A stretch of DNA of 64,000 nucleotides. Origin: Candidatus Magasanikiibacteriota bacterium. GTDB lineage: Bacteria > Patescibacteriota > Patescibacteriia > Magasanikbacterales > UBA922. The translations under genes and the position numbers were made by a program. Under the pieces are notes generated by a model, which had not been told where the DNA came from, ran no database searches, and worked only from the letters and a program-made list of their open reading frames with translations. The stretch is taken from the NCBI GenBank assembly GCA_021648085.1, contig JAKITS010000001.1:452948-516947 (forward strand), written 5' to 3'. Below, in pieces: positions 58,214 to 64,000 of this stretch; within the stretch, counting starts at the first letter, position 1, and each line of letters begins with the position of its first letter.

Positions 58214-58729
58214 CTATCTACTCAGCTCTACCTCTGCGCTAAGCTCGTGCTCACAAGCACGAATAGTCACAAGATCTGCAGATGATTTTTCCAGAGTATA
58301 ACCTGTAATAGATGCAGACCAAGCACCGTCTCCATTTGGACTAATAGGGATTGAGCCCAAGTATCCCTGTGTCACCATATCTGAAATATCCACACAGACA
58401 GACTGTGTTGGATCTGTAGTACAAAAACTTGTCACATTTGAAGCTGTAGCCCCAGTCACACAAGTTCCGATAAGATAAACCTGCCCAACAGTTGTGTTTG
58501 TAATTGTAGTAAGGTATGTACCGCCGTTGTCAATTTGATCCACCTTAACAGCCTGAAGAATGTTATTTACATCTGAAAATCTTCTTGCATCTCTTGCATC
58601 TTTAAAACGCTTTGCAGGATTTAGAGCTACAAAAATTAAAAGAGCCAGAATTGCAATAATTGCAATAACTAAAAGTAATTCGATTAAAGTAAAACCTTTT
58701 CTTTTTTCTAAGTACTCTTTAATTTTCAT
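58214..58729 (-). CDS. type IV pilin-like protein (class III signal peptide)
   Basis: MKIKEYLEKRKGFTLIELLLVIAIIAILALLIFVAL is a prepilin cleavage/methylation motif G|FTLIELL. C-terminal Cys pair. Confidence 0.8.
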   Translation of the reverse strand: MKIKEYLEKRKGFTLIELLLVIAIIAILALLIFVALNPAKRFKDARDARRFSDVNNILQAVKVDQIDNGGTYLTTITNTTVGQVYLIGTCVTGATASNVTSFCTTDPTQSVCVDISDMVTQGYLGSIPISPNGDGAWSASITGYTLEKSSADLVTIRACEHELSAEVELSR

Positions 58730-58849
58730 AAAAAAATAACGAAATAATAATACATACATTATACCACAAAATAAAAAATATTTAAATTTATAAGACAAAA
58801 CAAAAAACAAGCCTTATGCTTGTTTTTTGTTTTTGAAGTTTTTTGAAAA

Positions 58850-59365
58850 CTAACGAGTTAAAGTAATCTCTGTTGTGTTCTCATCTTCACAAGCTCTAAT
58901 AGTTACAGACCCATTTGCAGCTTTTGCAATAGTGTATCCTGTGTTTGCAGCTGACCATGTTGCGGTACCATCAGGACTTATAGGAATAGATCCTAAATAA
59001 CCATCTGTCACAAGTCCGGTTAAGTCTGCACAAGCATCTTGAGTTGGTTCTGTTGTACAAAGATAATTTGTTACTGTGGTTGTTGCTCCAGTAGTACAAG
59101 TACCGACCATATAAACCTCGGAAGCTGTCGCACTAGTAATACTAGCTAGGTACGGACCTTTATTATCCACCTGGTCAACCTTAATTGCGGTCAAAATATT
59201 ATTTACATCCGAGAACCTTCTTGAATCACGAGCGTCTGCAAACCTAGTTGCAGGATCTAACGCTACAAAAATTAAAAGAGCCAAAATCGCAATAATTGCG
59301 ATTACCAAAAGCAATTCGATTAAAGTGAAACCTTTTGCTTTTGCCAAAGTTTTTTTCATTTGCAT
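58850..59365 (-). CDS. type IV pilin-like protein, paralog of 58214-58729
   Basis: MQMKKTLAKAKGFTLIELLLVIAIIAILALLIFVAL. Same N-terminal 40 aa as its neighbour but a divergent C-terminal domain. Confidence 0.8.
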   Translation of the reverse strand: MQMKKTLAKAKGFTLIELLLVIAIIAILALLIFVALDPATRFADARDSRRFSDVNNILTAIKVDQVDNKGPYLASITSATASEVYMVGTCTTGATTTVTNYLCTTEPTQDACADLTGLVTDGYLGSIPISPDGTATWSAANTGYTIAKAANGSVTIRACEDENTTEITLTR

Positions 59366-59684
59366 ATGCTATGAATTATATAAATAATAATTAATAAATA
59401 ATCTTACGAATTTAATTATACCATATTTATTAATTTTTTTTATATTAGACTTGTGTATAACTTACAAATTCTCCTCGTATAGATGCATTTCTAGACTATT
59501 AAAATAAACTGATTTTTTAGTATGTTTTTATATTATAATTGTGCATTTCATAAACATAGATAATACATATAATTTATAAAATTTTATTTATAAGTTCTAT
59601 TCAAGAAACTATCAAAAAAATATCCTGTTGGATATTTTTGTACACTCCAAAAGAATCTCACTACTCACCTCTTCGGGTTGCGCT

Positions 59685-59824
59685 CCTAAGAACCTTCAGG
59701 TTCTTAGGAAAACCTCCTCTACAAGTAGGGGAAAGTTTTCCCCTACCACCCCTTAGTTCGAATCCCTTGGCGTCAAAAAAATACCATTTCAGGTATTTTG
59801 TTTGTACACGCCAAGGGATTCGAA
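59685..59824. other. hairpin-rich non-coding element with inverted 17-bp tRNA T-arm/acceptor-like repeats (ttcgaatcccttggcgt / acgccaagggattcgaa); degenerate tRNA-derived sequence or att-like site
   Basis: Perfect hairpins cctaagaacc-ttca-ggttcttagg (59685-59708), gtagggg-N8-cccctac (59725-59746) and aaatacc-N5-ggtattt (59779-59799). GGTTCGAATCC-like T-loop strings occur in both orientations. No cloverleaf can be completed (see rejected). Confidence 0.35.
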
Positions 59825-59972
59825 CCCGAATATGCAGGTTTTGAAATGTCACTTAACCTAGCAAAATTGCTAAAATAAGCGAAATTTACGACTTCGCTAA
59901 AATCTCAATTTTCGCTGAAAAACGACAAAAACTGAATTTTTGGGCAGATTTTGGGCAGATTGATCTCAAAAC

Positions 59973-60003
59973 AAAACACCACTCTATTTTGAAGTGGTGT
60001 TTT
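59973..60003 (-). terminator. terminator for 60039-60578 gene (aacaccact…agtggtgtt + A/T runs)
   Basis: Perfect 9-bp stem with a U-run on the minus strand. Confidence 0.5.
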
Positions 60004-60038
60004 GTTTTTGTTTGAATATCGAGATAGCTTCCGAGCTT

Positions 60039-60669: not shown

Positions 60670-61583
60670 TTAGTAAGGTACATTTATGGGTACATAATCT
60701 AAATATTCCCAATCATCATCGTCATCATCTATAGTATCAACGTAAACATCTGCTTGGTATGTTCCTGCTTGACTTAGATGTAAAGAATGCCATGTATACC
60801 CATGCTCCCAAACATAAGGGCTGACGGAATTCCATCCAGAAGTTTGGGTCGCATATACTTCGTCATTACGGTAAAAAATTGTCTTAAATCTATGTTCTTC
60901 TCGGATATTATGAATACCTGATAAAACATAAACTGTTTGACCTGTATAATAAGTATATGTTTCTGTTGTACAAGAGTAAACCCAGTTTGTTGATGAGCTT
61001 CCAGTTATACCTCTACAGGCTTTGGTACTCCAATCACTTTCCAACTGCCTATATTCATTAAAAACATATTCGTTTTCAGTTGTGGAGCCTAGTCTATACA
61101 CGTGAAGGTATAAAGTTGAATAAGTGTCCATCCAAGAATCTATATCCCAGTCATGCACACCAACCGTATTGCTAGAAACAAAATTAGCATCTACTACTCT
61201 GATAACGCCACTACCAAGGTCTTCCAAAAAAAAATGGCTGTGTGCATGCCTGTTACAAAAGTCGTGTTATTATATGCACTACAAGATTCATAACCTGAAG
61301 ATGTATTAATTTGAATCACATCGCCTAGTTGGGCGTTTGTAATTCCACCAGACACTTCAGAACCAAGATCAAGATAAGCTTGGCAATATCCTGTACCAAG
61401 AGTAGCACCTAATTCTTGGTTGATTACTTGTTGAACAAACCCCTTACACTCAAAAGGGTAAACATTTTCAGTGTCATAGCTAAGAGCAGTGCCAGCTAAT
61501 TCATCATTGGTAAAAGCATATACACTTGAAACACAAAAAAACATAACACAAAATAAAATAAAGATTTGTGCGTACTTTCTCAT
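60670..61583 (-). pseudogene. secreted protein gene split by frameshift at T9 homopolymer (coding strand) - pseudogene or phase-variable gene
   Basis: ORFs 61194-61583 (signal peptide MRKYAQIFILFCVMFFCVSSVYA…) and 60670-61227 overlap at A9/T9 (61226-61234). Adding one T joins them in frame (…TGMHTAIFFLEDLGSGVIRVVDANF…) to give a ~305-aa protein. Confidence 0.6.
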
Positions 61584-61746: not shown

Positions 61747-62337
61747 TTATTTTAAAGGCAATTCAATTGTACGTAAACTTAAATTTTTATCATTACACTC
61801 TGTGCCTAATTTCAAACTGTCTGGATTTTTTACACATTCACTTTCTAAGAAAACTGCCTTTGTTCCATCATTTGAGATTATGATAAGTTTACCTCTGGTT
61901 GGCAATTCTTCTGTCTTTCTAGTGTTAAAATCTAAATGATAATTGAAAAATGGCCCATTATTTAATTTGGAATCTTTTGGCCATTGCCAAGCAGATCCAA
62001 TTAAAGTATTTTCAGTTAAAGATGTAAGAATAGGATCAATATGCCTAGTATAAAACCCTAGAGAATCTTTTATTTCATTATTTTTCATAATTCTAGTCCA
62101 ACCTACATCTCCTTCCTTACCAAACCCTATATGATCAAAGGTAAATATGTTTTTATTATCATCTAACGTTGAGGTACACGGCACATTTTTACTATTCATC
62201 CAGTCCAACAAGCGATTTAATTGACGATTTGTTTCAATAAATTTACGCTGAATAAAATAATTGTATGAAAGGGCTATAAAAAATACTAATATTATTGCTG
62301 ATATAACTACTACTTTTTGTTTTTTGTTGTTTAACAT
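61747..62337 (-). CDS. hypothetical membrane-anchored protein (196 aa), third gene of accessory operon
   Basis: N-terminal TM VVVISAIILVFFIALSYNYFI. 1-nt gap from the upstream gene. Confidence 0.5.
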   Translation of the reverse strand: MLNNKKQKVVVISAIILVFFIALSYNYFIQRKFIETNRQLNRLLDWMNSKNVPCTSTLDDNKNIFTFDHIGFGKEGDVGWTRIMKNNEIKDSLGFYTRHIDPILTSLTENTLIGSAWQWPKDSKLNNGPFFNYHLDFNTRKTEELPTRGKLIIISNDGTKAVFLESECVKNPDSLKLGTECNDKNLSLRTIELPLK

Positions 62338-62338
62338 A

Positions 62339-62833
62339 TTAAAATAATTTTTTATTTAATTTTGTAATAGAAGAAATTTTTTCAATTAAAGTATTATGTA
62401 TTATTACAGGAATTTCTTTTTCACCTAAATGAAAAGCTACTATTGTTCTATGGCGTCCATCATTAAAAGAAATATTAGGTAAATTATTTATGAAAATTTC
62501 TGGTGGATCAATAAATCCCCCATCACCCCAATGTTCTAACAATTTTGCGATTCTAAAATCACGTTCGTCGATACCATTAAATAATATATCGGGTTTTAAC
62601 TTTGTATGACCCATTTCTCCAAAATCTGCTTTATTGATTAATTCTTTTGTATTTACAAGATATATAGAATAATCTTTTAAACCAATAAGCTTGTAATACT
62701 TAGATAAATATTTTTTATTAGTCCCATAAGCCCACTTAACAATGATTTTATTAATTTCAAATAAACTTTTATTTTTATATGAATCAATATAATTTATGAT
62801 TTCTTTTGACAACTTCACTTTTGTGTTTTGCAT
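62339..62833 (-). CDS. ParB/sulfiredoxin-like nuclease-domain protein (164 aa)
   Basis: C-terminal motif FNDGRHRTIVAFHLGEKEIPVIIHN matches the ParB N-terminal domain signature (DGxHRxxAxxxLGxxxIPVxI). No parA nearby. Confidence 0.55.
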   Translation of the reverse strand: MQNTKVKLSKEIINYIDSYKNKSLFEINKIIVKWAYGTNKKYLSKYYKLIGLKDYSIYLVNTKELINKADFGEMGHTKLKPDILFNGIDERDFRIAKLLEHWGDGGFIDPPEIFINNLPNISFNDGRHRTIVAFHLGEKEIPVIIHNTLIEKISSITKLNKKLF

Positions 62834-62870
62834 ACAAAAATAACAATAAAATCTTTTTGACTAATTTTAG

Positions 62871-63710
62871 TTAAATTTTTTCATAATTGGAAAAATAATT
62901 TAATAAATTATTTTCTTCATCTTCTTTAATTAATTTTATACAAATTAAATTTTTAACGGCTCTTGAACAGGCAACATAAAACAATTTCTGATTTTTAAGT
63001 TTTTTCTCTAATTCTTCATCGCTAAAAATAATTTGAAAATCATATTGATTCCAAAAAAATTCGTCTAAGACAATCATTACATTTTCAATTTCTCCACCTT
63101 TTGTTTTATGCATGGTTATATATTCAGATTTGATATTTTCATCTATATATTCTTGATAATTAATAATTTCTTTAAAAGACACCTTTTTATTTTTAAATAA
63201 ATCAAAATAAAATAGTTCCTTGTTATATTTTCGCAAAAATTCATTAAATAATTCTTTATCAACTTTCATTTGTTTTGCTGTTGTGTTACCGCTTTTATAA
63301 GAAGTTTTACGATCATGATAATCTTTATCTATACTTAATTCTCTTAAAAATTCATCTTTATTCTCAATGTAATAATTATAAGAACTAGTTTTTTTTACAA
63401 ACTTATTTTCAAAAGCTTTTCCAACTGCTTTTATACAATCTATTTCACCTATAATCAATTCATTAAAAAAATTGGACACTGTTTCTTGATCTTCGATTTT
63501 TATTAACTTGAATCCTGACTTATTTATTGTTGTTAATACTTTATTATAATTTCTATTTTTAAAATCAATACATAATTTAGCTAAGTCATTAATGCCTAGT
63601 CTATCAAAATCTTTTTTTATAAGTTCATTAATTTCCCAGGTTCTTAAGCTATACAAATTATATAAATTACTAAAACCTAATTCATTCGCAATAGATTTAT
63701 TAGTAAGCAT
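62871..63710 (-). CDS. protein with UvrD/PcrA-helicase C-terminal-like domain (motifs V-VI) and novel N-terminal region (279 aa)
   Basis: TMHKTKGGEIENVMIVLDEF (motif V-like TxHKSKGLEFxxVxL) and LFYVACSRAVKNLICI (motif VI-like LLYVAxTRAKxxL). No Walker A/B in the N-terminal 200 aa. Confidence 0.5.
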   Translation of the reverse strand: MLTNKSIANELGFSNLYNLYSLRTWEINELIKKDFDRLGINDLAKLCIDFKNRNYNKVLTTINKSGFKLIKIEDQETVSNFFNELIIGEIDCIKAVGKAFENKFVKKTSSYNYYIENKDEFLRELSIDKDYHDRKTSYKSGNTTAKQMKVDKELFNEFLRKYNKELFYFDLFKNKKVSFKEIINYQEYIDENIKSEYITMHKTKGGEIENVMIVLDEFFWNQYDFQIIFSDEELEKKLKNQKLFYVACSRAVKNLICIKLIKEDEENNLLNYFSNYEKI

Positions 63711-63952
63711 TAATTTTGTATATTTCTGCTCTTCTCTATCTTCGGCTTTTTTTATTAGTTCAGATAACTTTAATAAATATTGATCTTTTTCTTCCTGAGG
63801 ACTAAAAACGTTAGGTTTATTTTTACTATAAATTGAATAATATAATTTAACAATTCCTTTTCTATCATCTACAGTCTGTCCATCTTTTAACGCAACTTTT
63901 TGTTTTTATTTATGCTAGTCATGAAAGTCGCTGTATTCTTTAGATTTTAAAT

Positions 63953-64000
63953 ATGATTACCATAATTACAGGAAAACCTGGAGCTGGAAAAACCTTGTTC
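63953..64000 (+). CDS. partial CDS (N-terminus): P-loop NTPase, Walker A GKPGAGKT; continues past window end
   Basis: ATG at 63953 followed by MITIITGKPGAGKTLF. Divergent from the accessory operon. Confidence 0.45.
   Translation, partial: MITIITGKPGAGKTLF

Follow-up and report, generated by a model that had tools for sequence, protein, structure and literature searches.

A truncated Gabija gajB gene beside an intact Osa-like ParB/Srx-fold gene: a likely defence-island remnant in a Candidatus Magasanikbacteria genome

Three co-directional genes lie at one end of the DNA analysed here, a stretch of 64 kb from contig JAKITS010000001.1 of a Candidatus Magasanikbacteria metagenome-assembled genome (MAG); this whole stretch is called the window below. 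An earlier note on the same DNA had proposed that these genes form an undescribed defence module. Our analysis indicates that they are probably something else: a remnant of gajB, which encodes the UvrD-like partner of the known Gabija system, an intact gene encoding a ParB/sulfiredoxin (Srx)-fold protein, and an unrelated truncated gene. The block that they form covers 2.15 kb and is bounded by two truncations, one at the 5' end of gajB and the other at the 3' end of the third gene. Its gajB and ParB/Srx part has a foreign composition. The simplest reading is that these are the decaying remains of a defence island gained by horizontal transfer, and not a working three-gene system.

All three open reading frames (ORFs) are located on the (-) strand: gene 1 at 62871-63710 (279 aa), gene 2 at 62339-62833 (164 aa) and gene 3 at 61747-62337 (196 aa). 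The coordinates and the gaps reported earlier, 37 nt between genes 1 and 2 and 1 nt between genes 2 and 3, are correct. As the products of all three have homologues elsewhere, the ORFs did not arise by chance and correspond to genuine genes or to fragments of genes. Their database twins are the hypothetical proteins L3J07_02575, L3J07_02570 and L3J07_02565 (genes 1, 2 and 3, respectively) of a Candidatus Magasanikbacteria MAG, the last one being a shorter call of 150 aa that spans 77% of the 196-aa ORF of gene 3. The block had also been described as the most AT-rich part of the window and as having an accessory-island-like setting. The comparison of GC contents agrees with this, with values of 0.213 for gene 1, 0.238 for gene 2 and 0.289 for gene 3 against a background of 0.326 (mean of 1-kb segments, sd 0.034); genes 1 and 2 have the lowest values of the window, and the setting is defence-related and compositionally foreign. 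A scan for promoters and terminators revealed no enrichment (21 found versus 19.3 expected).

Gene 1 is, judging from its sequence, the 3' ~55% of a Gabija gajB gene, which corresponds to domains 2A/2B (C-core and C-accessory) and from which the ATPase N-core has been cut off. The ORF matches the PADLOC GajB profile PDLC00125 from end to end (E 3.9e-79, profile positions 383-665 of 669). Furthermore, the homology does not begin at its ATG. The 63 in-frame codons located 5' of this ATG include no ATG, GTG or TTG and remain open until a TAA at 63906-63908, and when this start-less stretch (63711-63905) is added, the match to PDLC00125 reaches E 1.3e-94 and widens to profile positions 318-665. 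The 5'-truncated gajB remnant thus extends over 62871-63905 (-). Its 342-aa frame aligns with residues 320-587 of an uninterrupted homologue of 591 aa (P0039), in which the apparent start of gene 1 (KL-MLTNKS) is internal sequence. Since the first ~200 aa of gene 1 align contiguously to GajB, they are not a novel region. The former view, in which a novel N-terminal region was joined to a helicase C-domain, is therefore abandoned: the whole ORF aligns to GajB (PDLC00125) and the supposedly novel part is, on this alignment, the ordinary C-core/accessory region of the protein.

The motif content of gene 1 leads to the same identification. The UvrD/PcrA motif V/VI-like strings recognised earlier, TMHKTKGGE and YVACSR, are present; they resemble motifs V and VI of superfamily 1 (SF1) helicases and belong to a UvrD-family C-terminal sequence. 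The absence of an ATPase core was also rightly noted. Walker A, DExx/motif II and motif III are all missing from the 342-aa frame, which retains motifs V and VI. In the Maribacter homologue, these three motifs (Walker A GAGSGKT at residues 30-36, motif II DEYQD at 230-234 and motif III at 259-266) all precede residue 311, where the homology with the window begins. Pfam gave UvrD_C matches on gene 1 that remain below threshold, and a PDB sequence search with gene 1 gave no match. In substance, gene 1 is thus the C-terminal fragment of a disrupted UvrD-type gene, the very case that the note had set against its own proposal, and the helicase in question has a name, GajB.

In Gabija, whose prototype is that of Bacillus cereus VD045, GajB is the SF1 partner of the OLD-family nuclease GajA, and both the domain layout of GajB and the GajA:GajB complex (GajA4-GajB4) have been described (PMC10681800). 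Gene 1 and its extension match the C-terminal 352 positions of the GajB profile, including motifs V/VI, whereas the N-core with Walker A and motifs II and III is missing. No gajA is found in the 64-kb window either, since tblastn searches with two GajA subtypes and with N-terminal parts of GajB detected nothing else in it. The GajA4-GajB4 complex cannot form here as described (PMC10681800). Gabija requires GajA and an intact GajB (PMC10681800; PMC10781630) and, therefore, the system would be dead at this locus, unless the missing parts sit behind an insertion, past position 64000. As seen in the window, we infer that Gabija is not functional.

The end of the gajB homology can be located at 63903-63908. 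A tblastn search with the N-terminal part of the Maribacter GajB (residues 311-354) gave a match at 63902-63768 that then stops at the TAA present in the gajB frame (63906-63908), and four stop codons follow upstream in this frame. A divergent ORF starts 47 nt from the breakpoint, at 63953 (+). As stated earlier, a Walker A motif (MITIITGKPGAGKTLF) opens it. The ORF extends past the end of the window, and 16 codons, too few to assign its product, are visible (63953-64000). Such an N-terminal Walker A is a typical trait of small mobile-element P-loop NTPases. Together with the sharp loss of homology at 63903-63908 and with the proximity of this unrelated divergent gene, this would suit a gajB that was interrupted and not deleted, by a mobile element or a rearranged segment led by the P-loop ORF, the 5' half of gajB and gajA being located past 64000. 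We consider this scenario unlikely. The junction has no inverted or direct repeats, a search for mobile-element ends at the breakpoints gave AT-rich chance repeats only, and the P-loop ORF is visible over 16 codons only. Furthermore, a single insertion explains the second truncation, at the 3' end of gene 3, less well than general decay or deletion does.

It is still less probable that both truncations are artefacts due to assembly chimeras, located at ~63.9 kb and ~61.75 kb. Such errors could be suspected given that the source is a metagenome-assembled genome and that the two truncated genes flank a 2.15-kb piece of low GC content. However, the contig is 984,181 bp long, the stop of gene 2 and the start of gene 3 are separated by 1 nt in a clean arrangement, and no repeats that promote misassembly were found. 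A decaying fragment with two genuine truncations is the reading that we retain for the block.

Homologues of gene 1 of ~283-299 aa occur in Maribacter, Sulfurospirillum and Arcobacter. A naturally split GajB, with N and C halves encoded by separate genes, was considered and rejected: the splits of Maribacter and Sulfurospirillum are frameshifts in runs of A within full gajA-gajB operons, and their 'C-half' ORFs result from gene callers that restarted at the same internal Met. The uninterrupted homologue, which reads through 'KLMLTNKS', also speaks against a natural gene for the C half. Besides, frameshifts repeatedly break the Gabija operons of PDLC00125 type found in Maribacter, in Sulfurospirillum and on a metagenome contig (L012 7535-8000, L013 5590-5650, L011 4912-8000 and L040 5030-8041). 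At those gajB junctions of Maribacter and Sulfurospirillum that were read, they lie in runs of A, for instance a run of 13 A in Maribacter. These frameshifts could be due to sequencing error, pseudogenisation or phase variation. As a consequence for annotation, the ~280-aa 'hypothetical' ORFs that begin with MLTNKS in several genomes are gajB fragments.

At the other end of the block, gene 3 (61747-62337, (-)) is a 3'-truncated copy of a gene encoding a conserved, membrane-anchored, beta-propeller-like protein of Patescibacteria, of which the N-terminal ~205 of ~295 residues are kept. Its 61 homologues (47-64% identity), almost all of 280-310 aa, belong to Komeili-, Buchanan-, Falkow-, Parcu- and Absconditabacteria. 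Gene 3 aligns only to their residues 2-205, and the conserved C-terminal ~90 residues of the family are encoded nowhere in the window. Pfam gave no match on gene 3, and this small, membrane-anchored and Patescibacteria-specific family differs in these respects from the PD40/TolB-like and peptidase-associated beta-propellers. The homologues found elsewhere sit in a non-defence context. Gene 3 is unrelated to defence and is not part of a module; what remains of its earlier description is the membrane anchor, and its membership of a defence module does not stand. Near one homologue, in Komeilibacteria, a bAvd-like gene adjoins a reverse transcriptase gene (RVT_1; L014 10850-12229), an arrangement typical of a diversity-generating retroelement.

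With genes 1 and 3 so described, it appears extremely improbable that a UvrD-C-like recruiter, a ParB/Srx nuclease and a membrane protein form a functional module, to which the divergent P-loop NTPase might also belong. The tight co-directional genes, their low GC content, the intact gene 2 and the nearby Walker A ORF are all compatible with such a module, and there is a precedent for a GajB that works with a partner other than GajA, as type II Gabija consists of GajB and the MazF-like GajC (PMC13069673). In this system, as at the locus, a small protein other than GajA comes after a GajB homologue. However, the GajB is truncated here, the fold of gene 2 is ParB/Srx and not MazF-like, and related loci have GajA beside the gene 2 homologue. 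Moreover, gene 1 is a truncated gajB whose homology runs upstream of its ATG and which lacks the ATPase motifs, and gene 3 is a truncated copy of a gene for a Patescibacteria-wide protein found in a non-defence context. Finally, the combination of genes 1, 2 and 3 was found nowhere else. At the other PDLC00125-type loci (L011-L013 and L040), no gene 2 homologue follows gajB and the downstream genes are unrelated. What does recur is genes related to gene 2, beside complete Gabija operons and other defence systems.

Gene 2 is the only gene of the locus that would plausibly be functional. This intact gene (62339-62833, (-)) encodes an Osa-like ParB/Srx-fold protein of 164 aa belonging to a family that has no annotation: neither Pfam nor NCBIfam nor PADLOC gave a significant model. 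According to an alignment-based AlphaFold model (pLDDT 88.7, pTM 0.84), the protein has the ParB/Srx alpha+beta fold, and the closest solved structure is that of Osa (PDB 4OVB). A search of the gene 2 profile against PDB sequences returned only a weak match to SbnI (E 0.12). The string DGRHR...LGEKEIPVII, on which the earlier assignment was based, is present in gene 2. Its DGRHR motif (residues 125-129; 62447-62461, (-)) is the ParB/Srx active-site signature. Across 60 members of the family, no variation is seen at G126, H128 and R129, and conservation reaches at least 90% at D125 and R127. DGRHR corresponds to FGGCHR of Srx, DGQQR of GmrS and DGQHR of DndB, the nucleoside triphosphate (NTP)-binding/nuclease signature of the superfamily (PMC4619093). 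The predicted fold thus supports the previous assignment of gene 2 as a ParB/sulfiredoxin-type protein without a parA partner. A conventional partition ParB does not fit: the protein has 164 aa and no Pfam match to ParB_N or HTH, its gene is flanked by the gajB remnant and gene 3, and there is no ParA or partition context at the locus.

A profile search of 1.84 billion representatives retrieved 366 members of this family (E<=1e-3, counted as 50%-identity representatives). Most of them are stand-alone proteins of 140-170 aa and a few are fused to ADP-ribosyltransferase (ART), amidoligase or DUF5661. Among the loci that encode the closest homologues of gene 2 (46-53% identity), four carry Gabija (L001, L002, L005/L006 and L015), L003 being the exception. 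In L002 and L005/L006, the genes are arranged in a tight, co-directional and partly overlapping array: gajA, a short gajB (PDLC00102/PDLC00148), a gene for a 303-aa unknown protein, the gene 2 homologue and genes for a 356-aa and a 126-aa protein. In L001, the gene 2 homologue is located directly upstream of gajA-gajB, and L015 encodes, in this order, the C-terminal portion of a GajB of a third subtype (PDLC00131), the 303-aa protein and the gene 2 homologue. The close subfamily hence adjoins three GajB subtypes, the window (PDLC00125) being counted. Distant members (33-40% identity) are found next to other kinds of defence genes: a P2 Old-like protein in L028, DUF4297-HerA and a NucC-like nuclease in L019, Avs2 and PDC-M62A/B in L020-22, a GmrSD/NsnA-like DUF262 protein in L009, an Upx-like protein in L010, a mad3-like protein in L018, a type I HsdM in L033 and L034-36, and a DUF4365 protein in L025.

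Some of these neighbours deserve mention in their own right. The 303-aa protein always precedes the ParB/Srx gene in the closest relatives (L005 4119-6968, L002 7205-8116 and L015 1096-2022) and has no Pfam or PADLOC match. It was considered as an equivalent of gene 1 in L002 and L005 and rejected, as the two show no similarity. In L005/L006, the Cys-rich 356-aa protein and the 126-aa membrane protein come after the gene 2 homologue, with overlapping reading frames. The 303-aa protein, the ParB/Srx protein and these two proteins may constitute a separate four-gene unit attached to Gabija.

A different role can be envisaged for gene 2, namely that of a mobile-element weapon or of an anti-defence or establishment factor that hitch-hikes in defence islands, comparable to the ParB of polyvalent proteins (PMC5512222) or to a DndB-like regulator. 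The fusions to ADP-ribosyltransferase, amidoligase or DUF5661 are in keeping with such a role, as are the terminase and the ParB-methylase also carried by L001, the ArdC-N/MPTase, RuvC and HTH neighbours in L003 and a PHROG match (phrog_31328, function unknown, E 3e-7). We nevertheless judge this role to be unlikely, since in L002, L005 and L006 the gene is located inside a tight co-directional gajA-gajB operon and since the neighbours of the family are mostly defence genes, not transfer or virion genes. Furthermore, tblastn of the family gave no match among 72,556 plasmid records (PLSDB) and 50,697 phage records (INPHARED). A scan of viral contigs gave one marginal match.

Several observations weigh against the interpretation of the block as a decayed Gabija fragment that keeps an Osa-like, defence-associated gene. 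Firstly, the frequency of defence neighbours, with a recognised defence gene one or two genes away in ~13 of 19 distinct loci, comes from a small number of loci counted without a background control. Secondly, the likeness of gene 2 to Osa is structural only: gene 2 scores 13.6 bits against PFIN (PF22162), for a cut-off of 27, and 5 of the 60 family members show any PFIN match, the best with E 0.032. Thirdly, the ART and amidoligase fusions and the phage-like/ArdC contexts (L001 and L003) fit offensive mobile-element effectors as well as they fit defence. Finally, the missing 5' half of gajB and gajA could be located past 64000, on the far side of an insertion whose first gene is the P-loop gene.

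Regarding its activity, gene 2 can be compared with Osa and Menshen. Osa, the fertility-inhibition factor of plasmid pSa (PDB 4OVB, PFIN PF22162), is a ParB/Srx-fold ATPase/DNase whose two activities share one pocket, the nuclease being inhibited by high ATP (PMC4619093, PMC5512222). The gene 2 family has no significant sequence similarity with Osa and, whereas Osa is found on conjugative plasmids, it had no match in the plasmid records searched and sits in defence islands. In GmrSD, SspE and Menshen, ParB-family domains sense DNA in an NTP-dependent manner, and in Menshen NsnA pairs with an OLD-type ABC ATPase (PMC12065111); a ParB domain that serves defence as such a sensor therefore has a precedent (PMC12065111, PMC4619093). 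Like NsnA-NsnB of Menshen, and with a likeness to GmrS, SspE and DndB, the gene 2 family offers the case of a ParB-superfamily protein of DGxxR type beside OLD-family ABC ATPases. However, gene 2 is minimal (164 aa), lacks DUF262 and ParBDB and has no PADLOC match to NsnA, and there is no NsnB-like gene in the window.

Given the ATPase/DNase activity of Osa and the NTP sensors of GmrSD, SspE and Menshen, NTP-gated binding or nicking of DNA is the likeliest activity for gene 2. By analogy with Osa, GmrS and DndB, the protein would bind and hydrolyse NTP in its DGRHR pocket, and its NTP state would gate the binding or nicking of incoming foreign DNA. It may do so on its own, or serve OLD-family nuclease systems such as Gabija as an accessory sensor. 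Taken alone, this mechanism is a serious possibility that falls somewhat short of being probable. A broader proposal can be made, according to which the Osa-like family would be a new anti-mobile-element component, acting as an NTP-gated DNase by itself or, in the manner of NsnA-NsnB, as a third subunit of sensor type that works with OLD-family nucleases (Gabija, Old). This proposal is rather doubtful. A partnership of the family with GajA or Old is suggested by adjacency only.

The region that precedes the block in the window carries several other features. A perfect 18-nt inverted repeat (GTTCGAATCCCTTGGCGT) is present at 59756-59773 (+) and 59808-59825 (-), where none is expected by chance. 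It resembles a tRNA T-arm/acceptor, and the region 59640-59850 folds into three strong hairpins (minimum free energy of -95.6 kcal/mol, z -8.6). The tRNA-fragment-like hairpin mentioned in the note is thus real as sequence, but tools do not call it: ARAGORN found no tRNA in the whole window and Rfam nothing credible at the hairpin region. These hairpins may be remnants of a tRNA 3' end (att-like) at the border of an island. They are located, together with another hairpin near 59970-60010, within ~670 nt devoid of any credible ORF (59366-60038), which is unusually long for a compact Patescibacteria genome. Closer to the block, at 60670-61583 (-), lies what looks like a single gene for a secreted protein that a frameshift has divided into two overlapping ORFs: 61194-61583 (129 aa), whose N-terminus is signal-peptide-like, and 60670-61227 (185 aa). 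Neither has a Pfam match. On the other side of the hairpins, at 58214-59365 (-), two tandem type IV pilin-like genes carry the N-terminal methylation motif (PF07963; E 2e-8 and 2e-7).

The locus can be viewed as an example of the acquisition and decay of Gabija in a reduced genome of the candidate phyla radiation (CPR)/Patescibacteria. If the broader proposal made for the Osa-like family is true, the window would keep an accessory gene after the decay of its Gabija partner. Beyond this genome, our data bring to light a small ParB/Srx family that is absent from Pfam, NCBIfam and PADLOC, recurs in or beside Gabija operons of three subtypes and has at least seven further kinds of defence genes among its neighbours. 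How Gabija discriminates between self and non-self is still debated. Should this family prove functional, the biology of Gabija and of OLD-family nucleases would gain a ParB-fold element that senses NTP.

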